From IMG/VR virus record IMGVR_UViG_2654587569_000001: a stretch of 7,413 bases of DNA, one strand, 5' to 3'. Position numbers and translations under genes: made by a program. Below the pieces are notes generated by a model. It did not search any database, had not been told where the DNA came from, and saw nothing but the letters and a program-made list of their open reading frames with translations. Positions 1 to 7,413 of the stretch are shown here, piece after piece (positions within the stretch are counted from its first letter, which is position 1; every line of letters starts with the position of its first letter). Origin of the DNA: a virus. Lineage: Duplodnaviria; Heunggongvirae; Uroviricota; Caudoviricetes.

Positions 1-75
1 GGGAAAAAAGCGGCAGCGGACTTTATGCAACAGCAGGCCCGTGATGGTGGTCGGTTAAGTGGAGCATATCGGTAA
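1..75 (+). CDS. H: Tail tape measure protein gpH, extreme C-terminal end (5' part lies outside the window)
   Basis: Frame 1 is open from the window edge (GKKAAADFMQQQARDGGRLSGAYR) to TAA at 73..75, which overlaps the ATG of the next gene (TAATG, 73..77). The call rests on position immediately upstream of M in a lambda-like tail module; 24 codons is too short for independent recognition. Confidence 0.5.
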   Translation, partial: GKKAAADFMQQQARDGGRLSGAYR

Positions 76-404
76 TGGAGACGTTTCACTGGAAAGTGCG
101 CCCGGATATGAATGTGGTATCAGAGCCGAAAGTGGTGACAGTGAAGCTGGGCGATGGTTATGAACAGCGTCGTGCGGCGGGACTGAATAACCAGTTGTCG
201 ACTTACAGCGTGACGATACGTGTTCGTAAATGTGAACACCCATCTTTAAAAGCCTTTCTGGAACGGCACGGTGGCGTCCGCGCATTTCAGTGGACGCCAC
301 CTTATGACTGGAAGCCGATCAGGGTGGTTTGTCGTAAATGGTCGGCAAGCGTGGGGGCGTTGTGGGTAACCATAACGGCAGATTTTGAACAGGTCGTGGC
401 ATAG
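75..404 (+). CDS. M: Minor tail protein M (tail tip assembly), 109 aa
   Basis: Complete ORF ATG 75 to TAG 402..404. Same length and, from memory, very similar sequence to lambda gpM (METFHWKV...GDGY..TYSV....WTPPY.W......KWS.....FEQVV). Start overlaps the upstream stop (coupling) and the stop sits inside the RBS of L. Confidence 0.88.
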   Translation: METFHWKVRPDMNVVSEPKVVTVKLGDGYEQRRAAGLNNQLSTYSVTIRVRKCEHPSLKAFLERHGGVRAFQWTPPYDWKPIRVVCRKWSASVGALWVTITADFEQVVA

Positions 405-413
405 GAGGCTCTG

Positions 414-1112
414 ATGCAGGATATTCCACAGGAAACACATCATGAGACGACACGCCTCACTCAGTCAGCCCAGGTGGTGCTCTGGGAAATCGATCTGACA
501 GAGGTCGGTGGTGAACGTTATTTTTTCTGTAATGAGCAGAACGAAAAAGGTGAGCCGGTTACCTGGCAGGGGCGGCAGTATCAGGCATACCCCATTCAGG
601 GGACGGGATTTGAACTGAACGGCAAGGGCAGTGCTGCCCGTCCGACACTGACGGTTTCTAACCTGCACGGAATGGTCACCGGGATGGCGGAAGACCTGCA
701 GAGTCTGGTCGGCGGAACGGTGGTCAGGCGTAAGGTTTACGCCCGTTTTCTGGATGCGGTGAACTTCGTCAACGGAAACAGCGACGCCGATCCGGAGCAG
801 GAGGTGATCAGCCGCTGGCGCATCGAGCAGTGCAGCGAACTGAGCGCGGTCAGTGCCTCCTTTGTACTGTCCACACCGACGGAAACGGACGGCGCTGTTT
901 TTCCGGGGCGCATCATGCTGGCCAACACCTGCACCTGGACCTATCGCGGTGATGAGTGCGGTTATAACGGTCCGGCTGTCGCGGATGAATATGACCAGCC
1001 GACGTCCGATATCACGAAAGATAAATGCAGCAAATGCCTGAGTGGCTGTAAGTTTCGCAATAACGTCGGCAACTTTGGCGGCTTCCTTTCCATTAACAAA
1101 CTTTCGCAGTAA
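414..1112 (+). CDS. L: Tail tip protein L, 232 aa, with C-terminal cysteine cluster
   Basis: Complete ORF with strong Shine-Dalgarno AGGAGG at 403..408 and ATG at 414. The protein begins MQDI.QET and contains WEIDLTEVGGERYFFCNEQNEKGEPVTWQGRQYQ, which I recognise as lambda gpL, also 232 aa. C-terminal cysteines (CTWTYRGDECGY ... KCSKCLSGC, roughly 930..1052) fit the Fe-S cluster reported for the gpL family. Confidence 0.9.
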   Translation: MQDIPQETHHETTRLTQSAQVVLWEIDLTEVGGERYFFCNEQNEKGEPVTWQGRQYQAYPIQGTGFELNGKGSAARPTLTVSNLHGMVTGMAEDLQSLVGGTVVRRKVYARFLDAVNFVNGNSDADPEQEVISRWRIEQCSELSAVSASFVLSTPTETDGAVFPGRIMLANTCTWTYRGDECGYNGPAVADEYDQPTSDITKDKCSKCLSGCKFRNNVGNFGGFLSINKLSQ

Positions 1113-1117
1113 ATCCC

Positions 1118-1862
1118 ATGACACAGACAGAATCAGCGATTCTGGCGCACGCCCGGCGATGTGCGCCAGCGGAGTCGTGCGGCTTCGTGGTGAGAACGCC
1201 GGAAGGGGAAAGATATTTTCCCTGCGTGAATATCTCCGGTGAGCCGGAGGAGTATTTCCGGATGGCGCCGGAGGACTGGCTGCAGGCAGACACTGCACGG
1301 TCAGATTGTGGCGCTGGTCCACAGCCACCCCGGTGGTCTGCCCAGGCTGAGTGAAGCCGACCGGCGGCTGCAGGTGCAGAGTGATTTGCCGTGGTGGCTG
1401 GTCTGCCGGGGGGCGATTCACAAGTTCCGCTGTGTGCCGCATCTCACCGGGCGGCGCTTTGAGCACGGGGTGACGGACTGTTACACACTGTTCCGGGATG
1501 CTTACCATCTGGCGGGAATTGAGATGCCGGATTTTCATCGCGAGGATGACTGGTGGCGTCACGGTCAGAATCTCTATCTGGATAATCTGGAGGCAACAGG
1601 GCTGTATCAGGTGCCGTTGTCAGCGGCGCAGCCGGGCGATGTGCTGCTGTGCTGTTTTGGTTCATCGGTGCCGAATCATGCCGCCATTTACTGTGGTGAC
1701 GGCGAGCTGCTGCACCATATTCCTGAACAACTGAGCAAACGAGAGAGGTATACCGACAAATGGCAGCGACGCACACACTCCCTCTGGCGTCACCGGGCAT
1801 GGCACGCATCTGCCTTTACGGGGATTTGCAACGATTTGGCCGCCGCATCGACCTTCGTGTGA
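1118..1862 (+). pseudogene. K: Tail tip assembly protein K (JAB/MPN peptidase + NlpC/P60 domains), reading frame broken near 1287..1299: N-terminal 60 codons in ORF 1118..1354, remainder in ORF 1239..1862
   Basis: ORF 1118..1354 (frame 2) starts 6 nt after the L stop and encodes MTQTESAILAHARRCAPAESCGFVVRTPEGERYF...EDWLQAD, then reads into unrelated residues and stops. The frame-0 ORF 1239..1862 starts with GTG, has no nearby ATG or RBS, and from codon 1299 encodes GQIVALVHSHPGGLPRLSEAD (JAMM motif HxHx7Sx2D, 1320..1361), followed by an NlpC/P60-like Cys (DCYTLF, Cys codon 1479..1481) and His (NHAAIY). The two pieces make one K-like protein only if the frame switches by +1 between about 1287 and 1298. 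Whether this is a real mutation, a sequencing error or natural cannot be decided from sequence alone. Confidence 0.6.
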
Positions 1863-2407
1863 AAACGGGGGCCGAAGCCATCCGGGCGCTGGCCACACAG
1901 CTCCCGGCGTTTCGTCAGAAGCTGAATGACGGCTGGTATCAGGTGCGCATTGCCGGGCGTGATGCAGGTGAAACCGAATTATCTGCCCGTCTTAATGAGC
2001 CGCTGGCAAATGGTGCCGTGATCCATATCGTGCCGCGTCTGGCGGGAGCTAAAAGTGGCGGTGTATTTCAGGTGGTGCTGGGGGCGGCGTTGATTGCGGT
2101 GGCATGGTGGAACCCTGTGGGCTGGCTGGGTGCCGCGGCTGTATCGGGCATGTATGCGGCAGGGGCCAGTATGATCCTGGGCGGTGTGGCGCAGATGCTG
2201 GCACCGAAAGCCAGGACGCCCACGGCAGCCAGTACAGATAACGGCAAACAGAACACCTATTTCTCCTCACTGGATAACATGGTTGCTCAGGGCAATGTTT
2301 TGCCTGTTCTGTACGGTGAAATGCGTGTGGGGTCGCGGGTGGTTTCTCAGGAGATCAGCACGGCAGACGAAGGGGACGGTGGTCAGGTTGTGGTGATTGG
2401 TCGCTGA
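1760..2407 (+). CDS. I: Tail assembly protein I, 215 aa (N-terminal ubiquitin-like domain ending in Gly-Gly, then a hydrophobic segment and conserved C-terminus)
   Basis: Complete ORF ATG 1760 to TGA 2405..2407. It begins MAATHTLPLASPGMARICLYGDLQRFGRRIDLRVKTGAEAIRALATQLPAFRQKL and ends NGKQNTYFSSLDNMVAQGNVLPVLYGEMRVGSRVVSQEISTADEGDGGQVVVIGR, which I recognise as lambda gpI (223 aa in lambda, from memory). Its first 103 nt overlap the end of the K frame-0 ORF in a different frame, as in lambda. Confidence 0.85.
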   Translation: MAATHTLPLASPGMARICLYGDLQRFGRRIDLRVKTGAEAIRALATQLPAFRQKLNDGWYQVRIAGRDAGETELSARLNEPLANGAVIHIVPRLAGAKSGGVFQVVLGAALIAVAWWNPVGWLGAAAVSGMYAAGASMILGGVAQMLAPKARTPTAASTDNGKQNTYFSSLDNMVAQGNVLPVLYGEMRVGSRVVSQEISTADEGDGGQVVVIGR

Positions 2408-2425
2408 TGCAAAATGTTTTATGTG

Positions 2426-2453
2426 AAACCGCCTGCGGGCGGTTTTGTCGTTT
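2426..2453 (+). terminator. Candidate hairpin with T-rich tail in the I-J intergenic gap (possible partial terminator or RNA-stability element)
   Basis: Perfect 8-bp inverted repeat AAACCGCC (2426..2433) / GGCGGTTT (2438..2445) with 4-nt loop TGCG, followed by TGTCGTTT (2446..2453). The U-tract is interrupted, so termination efficiency is uncertain. It lies between the I stop (2407) and the J start (2468). Confidence 0.3.
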
Positions 2454-2467
2454 ATGGAGCGTGAGGA

Positions 2468-5400
2468 ATGGGTAAAGGCAGCAGTAAGGGGCATACCCCG
2501 CGCGAAGCGAAGGACAACCTGAAGTCCACGCAGTTGCTGAGTGTGATTGATGCCATCAGCGAAGGGCCGATTGAAGGTCCGGTGGATGGCTTAAAAAGCG
2601 TGCTGCTGAACAGTACGCCGGTGCTGGACAGTGAGGGGAATACCAACATCTCCGGTGTCACGGTGGTGTTCCGGGCAGGTGAGCAGGAGCAGACTCCGCC
2701 GGAGGGGTTTGAATCCTCCGGCTCCGAGACGGTGCTGGGTACGGAAGTGAAATATGACACGCCGATCACCCGCACCATCACGTCGGCAAACATCGACCGT
2801 CTGCGCTTTACCTTCGGTGTACAGGCACTGGTGGAAACCACCTCAAAGGGAGACAGGAATCCGTCGGAAGTTCGCCTGCTGGTTCAGATACAGCGTAACG
2901 GTGGCTGGGTGACGGAAAAAGACATCACCATTAAGGGCAAAACCACCTCGCAGTATCTGGCCTCGGTGGTGGTGGATAACCTGCCGCCGCGCCCGTTTAA
3001 TATCCGGATGCGCAGGATGACGCCGGACAGCACCACAGACCAGCTGCAGAACAAAACGCTCTGGTCGTCATACACCGAAATCATCGATGTGAAACAGTGC
3101 TACCCGAACACGGCACTGGTCGGCGTGCAGGTGGACTCGGAGCAGTTCGGCAGCCAGCAGGTGAGCCGTAATTATCATCTGCGCGGGCGCATTCTGCAGG
3201 TGCCGTCGAACTATAACCCGCAGACGCGACAATACAGCGGTATCTGGGACGGAACGTTTAAACCAGCATACAGCAACAACATGGCCTGGTGTCTGTGGGA
3301 TATGCTGACCCACCCGCGCTACGGCATGGGGAAACGTCTTGGTGCGGCGGATGTGGATAAATGGGCGCTGTATGTCATCGGCCAGAATTGCGACCAGTCA
3401 GTGCCGGACGGCTTTGGCGGCACGGAGCCGCGCATCACCTGTAATGCGTACCTGACCACACAGCGCAAGGCGTGGGATGTGCTCAGTGATTTCTGCTCGG
3501 CGATGCGCTGTATGCCGGTATGGAACGGGCAGACGCTGACGTTCGTGCAGGACCGACCATCAGATAAGGTGTGGACCTATAACCGCAGTAATGTGGTGAT
3601 GCCGGATGATGGCGCGCCGTTCCGCTACAGCTTCAGCGCCCTGAAGGACCGCCATAATGCCGTTGAGGTGAACTGGATTGACCCGGATAACGGCTGGGAG
3701 ACGGCGACAGAGCTTGTTGAAGATACGCAGGCCATTGCCCGTTACGGTCGTAATGTCACGAAGATGGATGCCTTTGGCTGTACCAGCCGGGGGCAGGCAC
3801 ACCGCGCCGGGCTGTGGCTGATTAAAACAGAACTGCTGGAAACGCAGACCGTGGACTTCAGCGTCGGCGCAGAAGGGCTTCGCCATGTACCGGGCGATGT
3901 TATTGAAATCTGCGATGATGACTATGCCGGTATCAGCACCGGTGGTCGCGTGCTGGCGGTGAACAGCCAGACCCGGACGCTGACGCTCGACCGTGAAATC
4001 ACGCTGCCATCCTCCGGCACCACGCTGATAAGCCTGGTTGACGGGCAGGGTAATCCGGTGAGCGTGGAGGTCCAGTCCGTCACCGACGGCGTGAAGGTGA
4101 AAGTGAGCCGTGTTCCTGACGGCGTTGCTGAATACAGCGTGTGGGGGCTGAAGTTGCCGACGCTGCGCCAGCGCCTGTTCCGCTGCGTGAGTATCCGTGA
4201 GAACGACGACGGCACGTATGCCATCACTGCCGTGCAGCATGTACCGGAAAAAGAAGCCATCGTGGATAACGGGGCGCACTTTGACGGTGACCAGAGCAGC
4301 ACGGTGAATGGTGTCACGCCGCCAGCAGTGCAGCACCTGACCGCCGAAGTCACCGCAGACAGCGGGGAATATCAGGTGCTGGCGCGCTGGGACACGCCGA
4401 AGGTGGTGAAGGGCGTGAGCTTCCTTCTTCGCCTGACCGTGGCAGCGGATGACGGCAGTGAGCGGCTGGTCAGCACGGCCCGGACGACGGAAACCACATA
4501 CCGCTTCAGGCAACTGGCGCTGGGGCGTTACACGCTGACAGTCCGGGCGGTAAATGCGTGGGGGCAGCAGGGCGATCCGGCGTCGGTATCGTTCCGGATT
4601 GCCGCACCGGCAGCGCCTGTCACTATTGAACTGATACCGGGGTATTTTCAGATAACAGCGGTCCCGAAACTGGCTGTATATGACCCGACGGTGCAGTTTG
4701 AGTTCTGGTTCTCGGAAAAGCGGATTGCGGATATCAGGCAGGTTGAAACCACAGCCCGCTATCTTGGCACGGCGCTGTACTGGATAGCTGCCAGTATCAA
4801 TATCAAGCCGGACCATGATTATTATTTTTACATCCGCAGTGTGAACACCGTTGGCAAATCGGCATTTGTGGAGGCTGTTGGCCAGCCGAGTGATGATGCA
4901 TCCGGCTATCTGGATTTTTTCAAAGGAGAGATAGGGAAAACCCATCTGGCTCAGGAGTTGTGGACGCAGATTGATAACGGTCAGCTTGCGCCTGACCTGG
5001 CTGAAATCAGGACGTCCATTACGGATGTCAGCAATGAAATCACACAGACCGTCAATAAGAAACTGGAAGACCAGAGTGCAGCGATCCAGCAGATACAGAA
5101 GGTTCAGGTTGATACAAATAATAACCTGAACAGCATGTGGGCTGTGAAGCTGCAGCAGATGCAGGACGGACGCCTTTATATCGCGGGTATTGGTGCCGGT
5201 ATTGAAAACACCCCTGACGGCATGCAGAGTCAGGTGCTGCTGGCGGCAGACAGGATTGCGATGATTAATCCTGCGAATGGCAACACAAAGCCGATGTTTG
5301 TTGGGCAGGGCGATCAGATATACATGAATGAAGTGTTCCTGAAATATCTGACGGCTCCCACCATTACCAGCGGCGGTAATCCTCCGGCATTTTCCCTGAC

Positions 5401-5950
5401 ACCGGACGGGCGACTGACGGCGAAAAATGCGGATATCAGTGGCAGTGTGAATGCGAACTCCGGGACGCTCAATAACGTCACGATAAATGAGAACTGTCAG
5501 ATTAAGGGGAAACTGTCCGCCAACCAGATTGAAGGCGATATTGTCAAAACGGTCAGCAAGTCTTTCCCCCGCACGAGCACTTATGCCAGCGGCACCATTA
5601 CGGTCACGATTAGTGATGATCAGAAGTTTGACCGACAGGTCATGATCCCGGCTCTGCTGTTTAAAGGAAGCAGGAAGGAAAATTATGGCAGTAATAATCA
5701 ACAGTCTTATGTTTATTCTGTATGCCGTTTGCAGGTAACGAAAAACGGGACAGAAATTTTTAATCAGTCAACAACGGATGCTCCGGCGGTTTTTTCTTCC
5801 GTTATTGATATGCCTGCGGGGCAGGGAACGTTGACGTTAAAGTTTACGGTCTCTTCTTCAATGGTCAATAACTGGACACCGACAACCAGTATCAGCGATT
5901 TGCTTGTTGTGGTGATGAAGAAATCCACCGCAGGTATCACGATTAGCTGA
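2468..5950 (+). CDS. J: Host specificity protein J / central tail fibre (tip attachment protein), 1160 aa
   Basis: Complete 3483-nt ORF with GGAG/GAGG upstream of ATG 2468. The N-terminus [54 protein letters not shown] matches lambda gpJ as I recall it. An internal fibronectin-III-like segment is present (about 4290..4570, ...[27 protein letters not shown]). It is longer than lambda J (1132 aa, from memory) and the last ~300 nt are conspicuously AT-rich. Confidence 0.93.
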
Positions 5951-6017: not shown

Positions 6018-6617
6018 ATGCGTAAAGTTTGTGCAGCAATTTTGTCCGCAGCCATCTGTCTGGCCGTATCCGGCGCGCCTGCATGGGCGTCTGAACAGCA
6101 GGCCACGCTGAGCGCGGGGTATCTTCATGCCCGGACGAACGCTCCCGGCAGCGATAATCTTAACGGGATTAACGTGAAATACCGTTATGAATTTACGGAC
6201 ACGCTGGGGCTGGTGACGTCATTCAGCTATGCAAAAGACAAAAATCACCAAAAAACCCATTACAGCGATACCCGCTGGCATGAAGATTCAGTGCGTAACC
6301 GCTGGTTCAGCGTGATGGCGGGGCCGTCTGTGCGCGTGAATGAATGGTTCAGCGCGTATGCGATGGCGGGTATGGCTTACAGCCGTGTTTCGACTTTCTC
6401 CGGAGATTATATCCGCGTAACTGACAACAAGGGGAAAAAGCACGATGTGCTGACCGGAAGTGATGACGGTCGCCACAGCAACACGTCTCTGGCGTGGGGG
6501 GCTGGCGTGCAGTTTAACCCGACCGAATCCGTGGCCATTGATGTCGCTTATGAAGGCTCCGGCAGTGGTGACTGGCGCACTGACGGTTTCATCGTGGGTG
6601 TCGGTTATAAGTTCTGA
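6018..6617 (+). CDS. lom: Outer membrane protein Lom (Ail/Lom/PagC/OmpX family beta-barrel), 199 aa; lysogenic-conversion moron
   Basis: Complete ORF with RBS GAGAGG 6007..6012 and ATG 6018. N-terminal Sec signal peptide [24 protein letters not shown] with AxA cleavage site. Motifs [22 protein letters not shown] and the C-terminus [23 protein letters not shown] (terminal aromatic residue typical of OMP barrels) match lambda Lom as I recall it. Located between J and stf exactly as in lambda. Confidence 0.9.
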
Positions 6618-6643: not shown

Positions 6644-6670
6644 AGCCCGCCGGTTCAGGCGGGCTTTTTT
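6644..6670 (+). terminator. Rho-independent terminator downstream of lom
   Basis: 8-bp GC-rich stem AGCCCGCC (6644..6651) / GGCGGGCT (6658..6665) with 6-nt loop GGTTCA, followed immediately by a run of six T (6665..6670). It lies 27 nt after the lom stop and 12 nt before the stf start. Confidence 0.75.
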
Positions 6671-6681
6671 GTGGGGTGAAT

Positions 6682-7413
6682 ATGGCAGTAAAGATTTCAG
6701 GTGTACTGAAAGACGGCACAGGAAAACCGGTAGAGAACTGCACCATTCAACTGAAAGCCAGACGGACCAGCAGCACGGTGGTGGTGAACACGGTGGCCTC
6801 TGAAAATCCGGATGAAGCCGGTCGTTACAGCATGGACGTTGAGTACGGGCAGTACAGCGTCATTCTGTTGGTGGAAGGATTCCCGCCATCACATGCCGGG
6901 ACCATCACCGTGTATGAAGATTCTCAACCCGGTACGCTGAATGATTTTCTCGGTGCCATGTCGGAGGATGACGTCCGGCCGGAGGCACTGCGCCGTTTTG
7001 AACAAATGGTGGAAGAGGCAGCGCGTCACGCCGAGGAGGCGAAGAAGAATGCCGGAGAGGCAGAGACGTCAGCGAGGAATGCCGGCATATCAGCCAGTCA
7101 GGCAGAAAAGAGCGCTGCAAATGCTGACACTTCAGCAGGAGAGGCATCGGAGTCAGCCCGGCAGGCGGCAGAAAGTGCAGCCTCAGCAAAGCAGTCAGAG
7201 GAGGCGTCCTCGTCCTCGGCCTCTGAGGCCGCTCAAAAAGCCAGTGAGTCATCACAAAGTGCAGCAGAAGCTGAATTGTCAAGAAAGACGGCAGAAAGTG
7301 CAGCCGGTAATGCAGCCAGGGATGCAACGACCGCAGCAGAAAAAGCCCGGGAGTCAGCAGAAAGCGCACAGTCAGCGGAACAAAGCAGGATAGCGGCGGA
7401 AGACGCCGTAAAC
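6682..7413 (+). CDS. stf: Side tail fibre protein Stf, N-terminal 244 codons (3' part outside window)
   Basis: ATG at 6682; frame 1 is open through the window end (732 nt, exactly 244 codons, no stop). The N-terminus MAVKISGVLKDGTGKPVENCTIQLKARRTSSTVVVNTVASENPDEAGRYSMDVEYGQYSVILLVEGFPPSHAGTITVYEDSQPGTLNDFL matches the start of lambda Stf (orf-401) as I recall it, and is followed by an Ala/Ser/Glu-rich repetitive shaft region. It is absent from the ORF track only because it has no stop codon within the window. Confidence 0.85.
   Translation, partial: MAVKISGVLKDGTGKPVENCTIQLKARRTSSTVVVNTVASENPDEAGRYSMDVEYGQYSVILLVEGFPPSHAGTITVYEDSQPGTLNDFLGAMSEDDVRPEALRRFEQMVEEAARHAEEAKKNAGEAETSARNAGISASQAEKSAANADTSAGEASESARQAAESAASAKQSEEASSSSASEAAQKASESSQSAAEAELSRKTAESAAGNAARDATTAAEKARESAESAQSAEQSRIAAEDAVN

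Follow-up and report, generated by a model that had tools for sequence, protein, structure and literature searches.

Gene content of the tail module

The window, which is the whole stretch of 7,413 nt analyzed here, is identical in sequence to the complete contig JHTI01000062.1 of draft assembly GCA_001266405.1. It contains the end of H, M, L, K, I, J, lom, and the start of stf, in this order and all on the plus strand, and this is a module of the lambda tail-tip type. The order M-L-K-I-J is the same as that of lambda and about 20 annotated loci. The best DNA relatives of the window are E. coli prophages and lambdoid phages such as cdtI, Ayreon, and mEp460 (95-98% identity).

Position 1 lies within the last 24 codons of the tape-measure gene H, of which only the 3' end is present. 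M (75..404) encodes the minor tail protein of 109 aa (Pfam Phage_min_tail, 1-108 of 108, E = 1e-39), and L (414..1112) encodes the tail tip protein of 232 aa (Phage_tail_L, 1-206 of 206, E = 1.6e-99). The K region (1118..1862) holds a split gene, recognized from the two halves of its Pfam matches and from alignment to intact K. NCBI gene calls for JHTI01000062.1 pass over 1118-1862. I (1760..2407) encodes the ubiquitin-like tail assembly protein of 215 aa (Lambda_tail_I, E = 1.3e-24); its first 103 nt lie within the 3' end of K. J (2468..5950) encodes the tip attachment protein of 1160 aa with six J-specific Pfam domains in order. It is followed by lom (6018..6617), which encodes an Ail/Lom outer membrane protein of 199 aa (Ail_Lom, 1-199 of 199, E = 2.9e-122). 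The side tail fibre gene stf (6682..7413; translation MAVKISGVLKDGTGKPVENCTIQLKA...; called as a gene in locus L133) is represented by its N-terminal 244 codons, which are open to position 7413, where the contig ends. The contig ends probably reflect breaking of the assembly at repeats common to co-resident lambdoid prophages.

The initial annotation had described M, L, I, and J as apparently intact, and the full-length Pfam matches agree. The same holds for Lom, and the stf start is also open. In the six genes other than K, comprising about 5.8 kb of coding sequence, there is no frame break. Since these genes are intact, the contig is not generally indel-ridden. Identical L and I proteins are found in 289 and 257 blocks of the assembly collection, respectively. 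The exact J protein is found in JHTI01000062.1 alone in a 153-billion-gene index.

Gene K is divided between two reading frames

K codons 1-57 (1118..1288) are in the original frame and encode the N-terminal half of the JAB/MPN domain, as supported by alignment to the intact 247-aa K. This half includes a putative JAMM glutamate, Glu19 (1172-1174), assigned from the motif pattern. An extra G at 1289 shifts the frame by +1. Codons 58-247 and the stop codon follow in the new frame (1290..1862). They encode the second half of the JAB domain, HSHPGGLPRLSEAD (1320-1361), which has the HSH...S..D motif, and the NlpC/P60 domain (about 1449-1790, by Pfam). According to the ORF list and three-frame translation, the original frame runs into a premature TGA at 1352..1354.

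The two open reading frames match consecutive parts of the same Pfam profile. The ORF at 1118-1354 (78 aa) matches Prok-JAB profile positions 3-62 (E = 2.8e-7), and its final 21 residues are out of frame. The ORF at 1239-1862 (207 aa), whose frame is free of stops throughout, matches Prok-JAB positions 60-103 (E = 1.7e-5) and the complete NLPC_P60 profile (1-105 of 105, E = 3.7e-13). When one base is removed, a 247-aa protein is obtained with Prok-JAB at 3-98 (E = 2.3e-14) and NlpC/P60 at 111-224 (E of about 5e-13). Because consecutive halves of a single domain occupy adjacent frames, the two-frame arrangement is not due to chance. The proposal that K is split across two frames is thus borne out by the Prok-JAB halves and by a single indel against intact relatives. 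The coordinates given earlier for the HSHPGGLPRLSEAD core are also correct. Its separation from the upstream acidic part, which probably includes Glu19, is explained by the inserted G in the JAB domain. Around the junction, the repaired protein reads ...EDWLQATLHGQIVALVHSHPGG... (over a longer stretch, ...EDWLQATLHGQIVALVHSHPGGLPRLSEAD...) and not ...ADTHGQ..., the reading offered as an example in the initial annotation.

Two potential internal starts were considered. In the 207-aa ORF, the first listed start is GTG at 1239; as had been suggested, no Shine-Dalgarno-like sequence is seen by eye before it. An internal ATG at 1262 is preceded by GGAGGAG. It is the equivalent of the start used in the 199-aa annotation of lambda K. 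This ATG lies upstream of the insertion, and its frame is lost after nine codons.

Repaired K has the characteristics of lambda gpK/TAPK: an N-terminal Prok-JAB domain (E...HxH...S..D), a C-terminal NlpC/P60 domain, and a position in the order M-L-K-I-J. In place of an uninterrupted ORF of about 247 codons, however, the window has pieces of 78 and 207 aa. The K locus here thus represents either a pseudogene of K or a K that was mis-sequenced, and not an intact member of gpK/TAPK. A PDB sequence search with K gave a single weak match in the JAB domain (2kks, E = 1.8e-6), which does not bear on the frame break.

The insertion is found in the window alone

Aligned with K of Ayreon, of two E. coli prophages (annotated as a 247-aa 'C40 family peptidase'), and of lambda, the window has one extra base. 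IMG/VR was scanned with two conserved words bordering the insertion site, and 124 relatives were matched. The spacer between the words measures 20 nt in each of these 124, compared with 21 nt (1284-1304) in the window. The spacer is AGGCAACACTGCACGGTCAG in L127 and L130, two IMG/VR loci with the closest intact alleles, and AGGCAGACACTGCACGGTCAG in the window, and G1289 is the sole difference between them. In the region 1250-1330, the form of the sequence that lacks the insertion is GGCAACACTG. L127 is 98.3% identical to window positions 1-4011, and G1289 is the sole indel in these 4,011 nt.

The alignment to lambda K and other K genes, which the initial annotation had suggested, thus placed the indel at G1289. 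This is inside the range where the frame change was expected (1287-1298) and outside the stretch given as an example (1291-1301). Note that the arithmetic presented earlier (1262-1862 is 601 nt, one more than 600) is still valid, because the insertion lies downstream of ATG 1262. G1289 turns GCAG-GCA-A into a perfect tandem GCAG-GCAG. There is no homopolymer in its context, as noted before.

None of the 111 aligned K genes carries G1289, and it is the only private change in K of the window; when rare alleles are included, there are no private substitutions. Among about 131 relatives examined, 125 encode K as one 247-codon ORF, and the other six are broken elsewhere in the gene. In 99 of 105 aligned K genes the ORF is 245-252 aa long (exactly 247 aa in 97 of these). 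K is also open, in frame, and 247 codons long at all of 20 further loci that have the exact I or L protein of the window. The G is private and none of the approximately 131 relatives is broken at its site, as would be expected from the single 1-nt inactivating insertion, or assembly error, that had been postulated.

At sites other than G1289, K is broken independently in five of about 130 relatives. The K ORF is truncated to 36-192 aa in five IMG/VR prophage contigs (L120, L023, L044, L034, and L094). Indels limited to single sequences are scattered over the K alignment (window-equivalent positions 1204, 1408, 1499, 1748, and 1847, among others). As far as database sequences tell, K disruption is not rare among prophages.

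The exact K allele of the window has no match in IMG/VR, in GTDB species representatives, or in JGI metagenomes. It is also absent from 5,426 complete E. coli genomes, where the best match is 95% identical over 121 nt. Neither K ORF product (78 aa or 207 aa) is found elsewhere in the protein/contig index.

A dimorphic patch at the insertion site

A dimorphic patch is located at 1289-1302 of the window, in the JAB domain and directly upstream of the HSH motif. The common form, GCA GA(A/G) ATG CAG GGT GAG (A-E-M-Q-G-E), is found in 104 of 111 aligned K genes. The remaining seven have the rare form, GCA ACA CTG (C/T)AC GGT (G/C)AG (A-T-L-H/Y-G-E/Q), and all seven are in frame. Four positions in a stretch of nine nucleotides distinguish the E-M-Q and T-L-H/Y forms (with a fifth in T-L-Y), and there are no intermediates among the 111. 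L127 and L130 are two of the seven rare alleles. The window belongs to the rare 'TLHGQ' class, and a single event separates it from the rare allele. G1289 is the same base as that of the common allele at the dimorphic position (GCAGA vs. GCAAC). Around the insertion, the window has six further differences from L127, all within the 96-nt patch 1251-1346.

Two ways of deriving the insertion from the dimorphism were rejected as unsupported. A recombinant between the allele classes does not explain it, as an in-register swap of alleles of equal length cannot yield an indel. Nor does an intermediate of a compensated double frameshift (EMQ to TLH), as the indel route requires four events and is no shorter than four substitutions.

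The lambda reference K and other known systems

K of the lambda reference NC_001416 is annotated at 14276-14875 with 199 aa. The initial annotation had given this length correctly. It is, however, a truncated annotation. Compared to all relatives, NC_001416 lacks one G after 14266 (GGAGGC-TATTTCC; window equivalent 1252), and for this reason lambda K is annotated as 199 aa. The G-containing form of lambda 14261-14273 is GGAGGCGTATTTCC. The missing-G state is limited to J02459, NC_001416, OR474059, and OR974322. The G is present in independently sequenced lambda and hybrids, including PV340536, KT232076, LC730321, OM418625-7, and DE3. Over 14133-14875, this G is the sole difference between the reference and either PV340536 or OM418626. 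With the G, lambda K is a 247-aa ORF that starts at 14133, 5 nt past the L stop, and it is annotated so in PV340536. These comparisons suggest that the absence of the G from J02459 and NC_001416 is very probably a sequencing error of 1982. Our literature search found no published correction of lambda gene K.

The 199-aa reference model, NCBI NP_040598, omits the first 48 residues, which are in the JAB domain. UniProt P03729 is presumably the same truncated model. At five loci (L001 of Ayreon, L131 of lambda imm434, L144, L146, and L147), K is called as 199 aa from the internal ATG despite an open 247-codon ORF, and these calls look like the truncated lambda reference model copied onward. L144, L146, and L147, whose L protein is identical to that of the window, were considered as candidates for a natural two-frame K and were rejected, since their 247-codon ORFs are actually open. 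The L-K spacer is one nucleotide shorter in all three, and K of L144 starts with GTG instead of ATG. The short calls at these three loci are annotation choices.

Re-sequenced lambda (PV340536) and the window share the position of gpK/TAPK between L and I, the length of 247 codons (after repair in the window), and the Prok-JAB and NlpC/P60 domains. The nucleotide identity over the K region is about 96-97%. The window differs from PV340536 in having the ORF-splitting G1289 and the rare TLHGQ patch, where lambda has EMQGE. The lambda reference K (J02459/NC_001416) resembles the window in its two-frame arrangement with a break inside the JAB domain; from ATG 14133, the first approximately 45 codons are in a different frame from the remainder. 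This break is about 37 nt upstream of the window site, is of the opposite sign (-1), and is absent from independent lambda stocks. No reference K with two frames meeting at the window site was found. A 199-aa ORF can be annotated in the lambda reference because the internal ATG is downstream of the break there. In the window, there is no such rescue because the internal ATG at 1262 is upstream of the break.

Two other systems are comparable. Degenerate TAPK proteins with only the NlpC/P60 domain, described in integrated prophages by Iyer, Burroughs and Aravind in 2006 (PMC1779556), have lost a functional JAB part, as has K of the window. While these proteins are shorter and miss the domain, the window keeps both JAB halves undecayed with one base between them. 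Another example is stf of lambda PaPa (PMC10721106), in which, as in K of the window, a one-base frameshift inactivates a single tail gene in an otherwise complete module. While stf is dispensable for plaques, K is needed for tail assembly (PMC12617516).

Origin and consequences of the extra base

On balance, we favor the reading that the K lesion is real and arose very recently as an inactivating mutation of the prophage. While the insertion in the sequence, its uniqueness, the domain split, and the intact neighbors are read directly from the contig and its alignments, we infer from them that the G is truly present in the DNA of the isolate. An ordinary lambda-type gene for the tail tip assembly protein K, 247 codons long, would have gained one G at 1289, possibly by transient strand misalignment on the quasi-repeat GCAG-GCA-A. 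The repaired gene predicts a product with a JAB/MPN metalloprotease-like N-terminus and an NlpC/P60 papain-like C-terminus. Ribosomes starting at 1118 would read 57 right codons and 21 wrong ones and stop at 1352-1354. In their 78-aa product, the JAB domain would be reduced to its upstream half, which has Glu19 as the likely catalytic residue; the zinc ligands of HSH...S..D and all of NlpC/P60 would be missing. The downstream remainder, which encodes the zinc-site motif HSH...S..D and NlpC/P60, appears to have no credible start. No functional gpK would be expected, because the product from 1118 stops early and the remainder cannot be credibly initiated.

In lambda, gpK is needed for tail assembly (PMC12617516) and is absent from virions (PMC10721106). 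For the JAB and NlpC/P60 domains of K, a role in processing the ubiquitin-like domain of gpI has been predicted (PMC1779556). Given the need for gpK in tail assembly, a real lesion would leave the prophage tail-defective. It would probably be unable to form infectious tails unless a co-resident lambdoid prophage gives K in trans. Such complementation is conceivable because the median number of matching K regions per E. coli genome is three. Expression of I, which begins within the 3' end of K, might be reduced by the lesion as well.

There is no further decay in K or its neighbors, with no private substitution in K and all neighbors intact. From this lack of decay, the lesion, if real, must be very recent. 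A broken K is normal in the population of relatives, because independent disruptions at other sites occur in five of about 130. The case is biologically ordinary: a known family in a known module with either a young pseudogenizing mutation or a consensus error. Should the extra G be real, the contig would represent a tail-defective lambdoid prophage with a very young lesion, an example of routine prophage decay.

It is also possible, though we hold it somewhat improbable, that K of the isolate is an intact 247-codon gene with the rare 'TLHGQ' allele and that the G comes from base calling or from a consensus of mixed prophage copies. The window is an entire short draft contig (7.4 kb) ending within repeated prophage genes. 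It appears to be repeat-bounded, a setting prone to mixed-copy consensus errors, and several K copies with 80-99% identity are usual in an E. coli genome. The inserted G equals the base of the common allele at the dimorphic position. Its position is within the 96-nt patch (1251-1346) whose ancestry relative to L127 is mixed, as a mixed-copy consensus could yield. The allele is not replicated in any collection searched, either as DNA or as the two ORF products. K has no other lesion and no private substitution; this absence of private change is predicted by an artefact and equally by a very recent mutation. A one-base error in the same gene of the lambda reference has stayed uncorrected for decades. 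Against these points, the insertion is not in a homopolymer, the context where sequencing indels are most expected. The word GGCAGACACTG would not be invented by a graph-based short-read assembler without reads that contain it, and the remaining 6.7 kb of the contig has no other frame break. Our literature search found no paper for assembly GCA_001266405.1. If the base is an error, K is to be annotated as an intact 247-codon gene.

A real insertion in a prophage that is still transmissible is very unlikely. Here, K would be given in trans by co-resident prophages, or a reinitiated product with NlpC/P60 only would suffice. If the latter were true, the JAB half of gpK would be dispensable for tail assembly, and this would bear on the proposed processing of the ubiquitin-like domain of gpI by the JAB domain of K.

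We give hardly any credence to the idea that the arrangement is functional as it stands, with full-length gpK made by a programmed +1 frameshift near 1289 or with the pieces, or a reinitiated NlpC/P60 piece, sufficing for tail assembly. The frame-0 ORF is wholly open and undecayed, but none of the approximately 131 relatives has a two-frame arrangement at the G1289 site. Lambda K was taken for 40 years as a 199-aa protein without the N-terminal JAB part, but this model arose artefactually from a missing base. TAPK versions with the NlpC/P60 domain only were noted by Iyer et al., but these are degenerate prophage forms, as the same authors suggested (PMC1779556). The frame from ATG 1262 and its GGAGG is likewise lost, since this start precedes the insertion. 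On inspection, the codons around 1289 (GCA GAC ACT GCA CGG) form no known +1 shifty motif; in 1284-1304 (GCA GAC ACT GCA CGG TCA), neither a +1 site of the CUU-U, CCC-U, or UUU-Y type nor an X XXY YYZ heptamer occurs. Folding of the RNA at 1270-1380 gives a structure no stabler than that of shuffled sequence (z = +0.71), and an Rfam search of the window gave no matches. A programmed ribosomal frameshift is thus rejected for want of conservation, a slippery motif, and a stimulatory structure or upstream SD-like element.

Outside annotation, the significance of the extra base in the window is small. More useful is the finding that the lambda reference K misses a G, and that new annotations continue to take over its truncated model.

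Other features of the tail module

The start of I is annotated in two ways, and L002 and L132 differ in this from L003 and L004. The long form begins at ATG 1760 (215 aa), and the short form at the K stop (182 aa). Since the Pfam Lambda_tail_I match starts at long-form residue 14, about 20 residues of the ubiquitin-like domain would be lost in the short form.

In the I-J spacer, a GC-rich hairpin is seen by eye at 2426-2445 (AAACCGCC-TGCG-GGCGGTTT); it is absent from the output of the hairpin scan. Another strong hairpin, followed by a T-run and resembling a terminator, is found after lom at 6644-6665 (AGCCCGCC-GGTTCA-GGCGGGCT TTTTT). Two long ORFs are on the minus strand, one opposite L and K (465-1562, 365 aa) and the other opposite J (3560-5701, 713 aa). 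Both are rich in Arg and Pro and seem to be a side effect of sense-gene codon composition.
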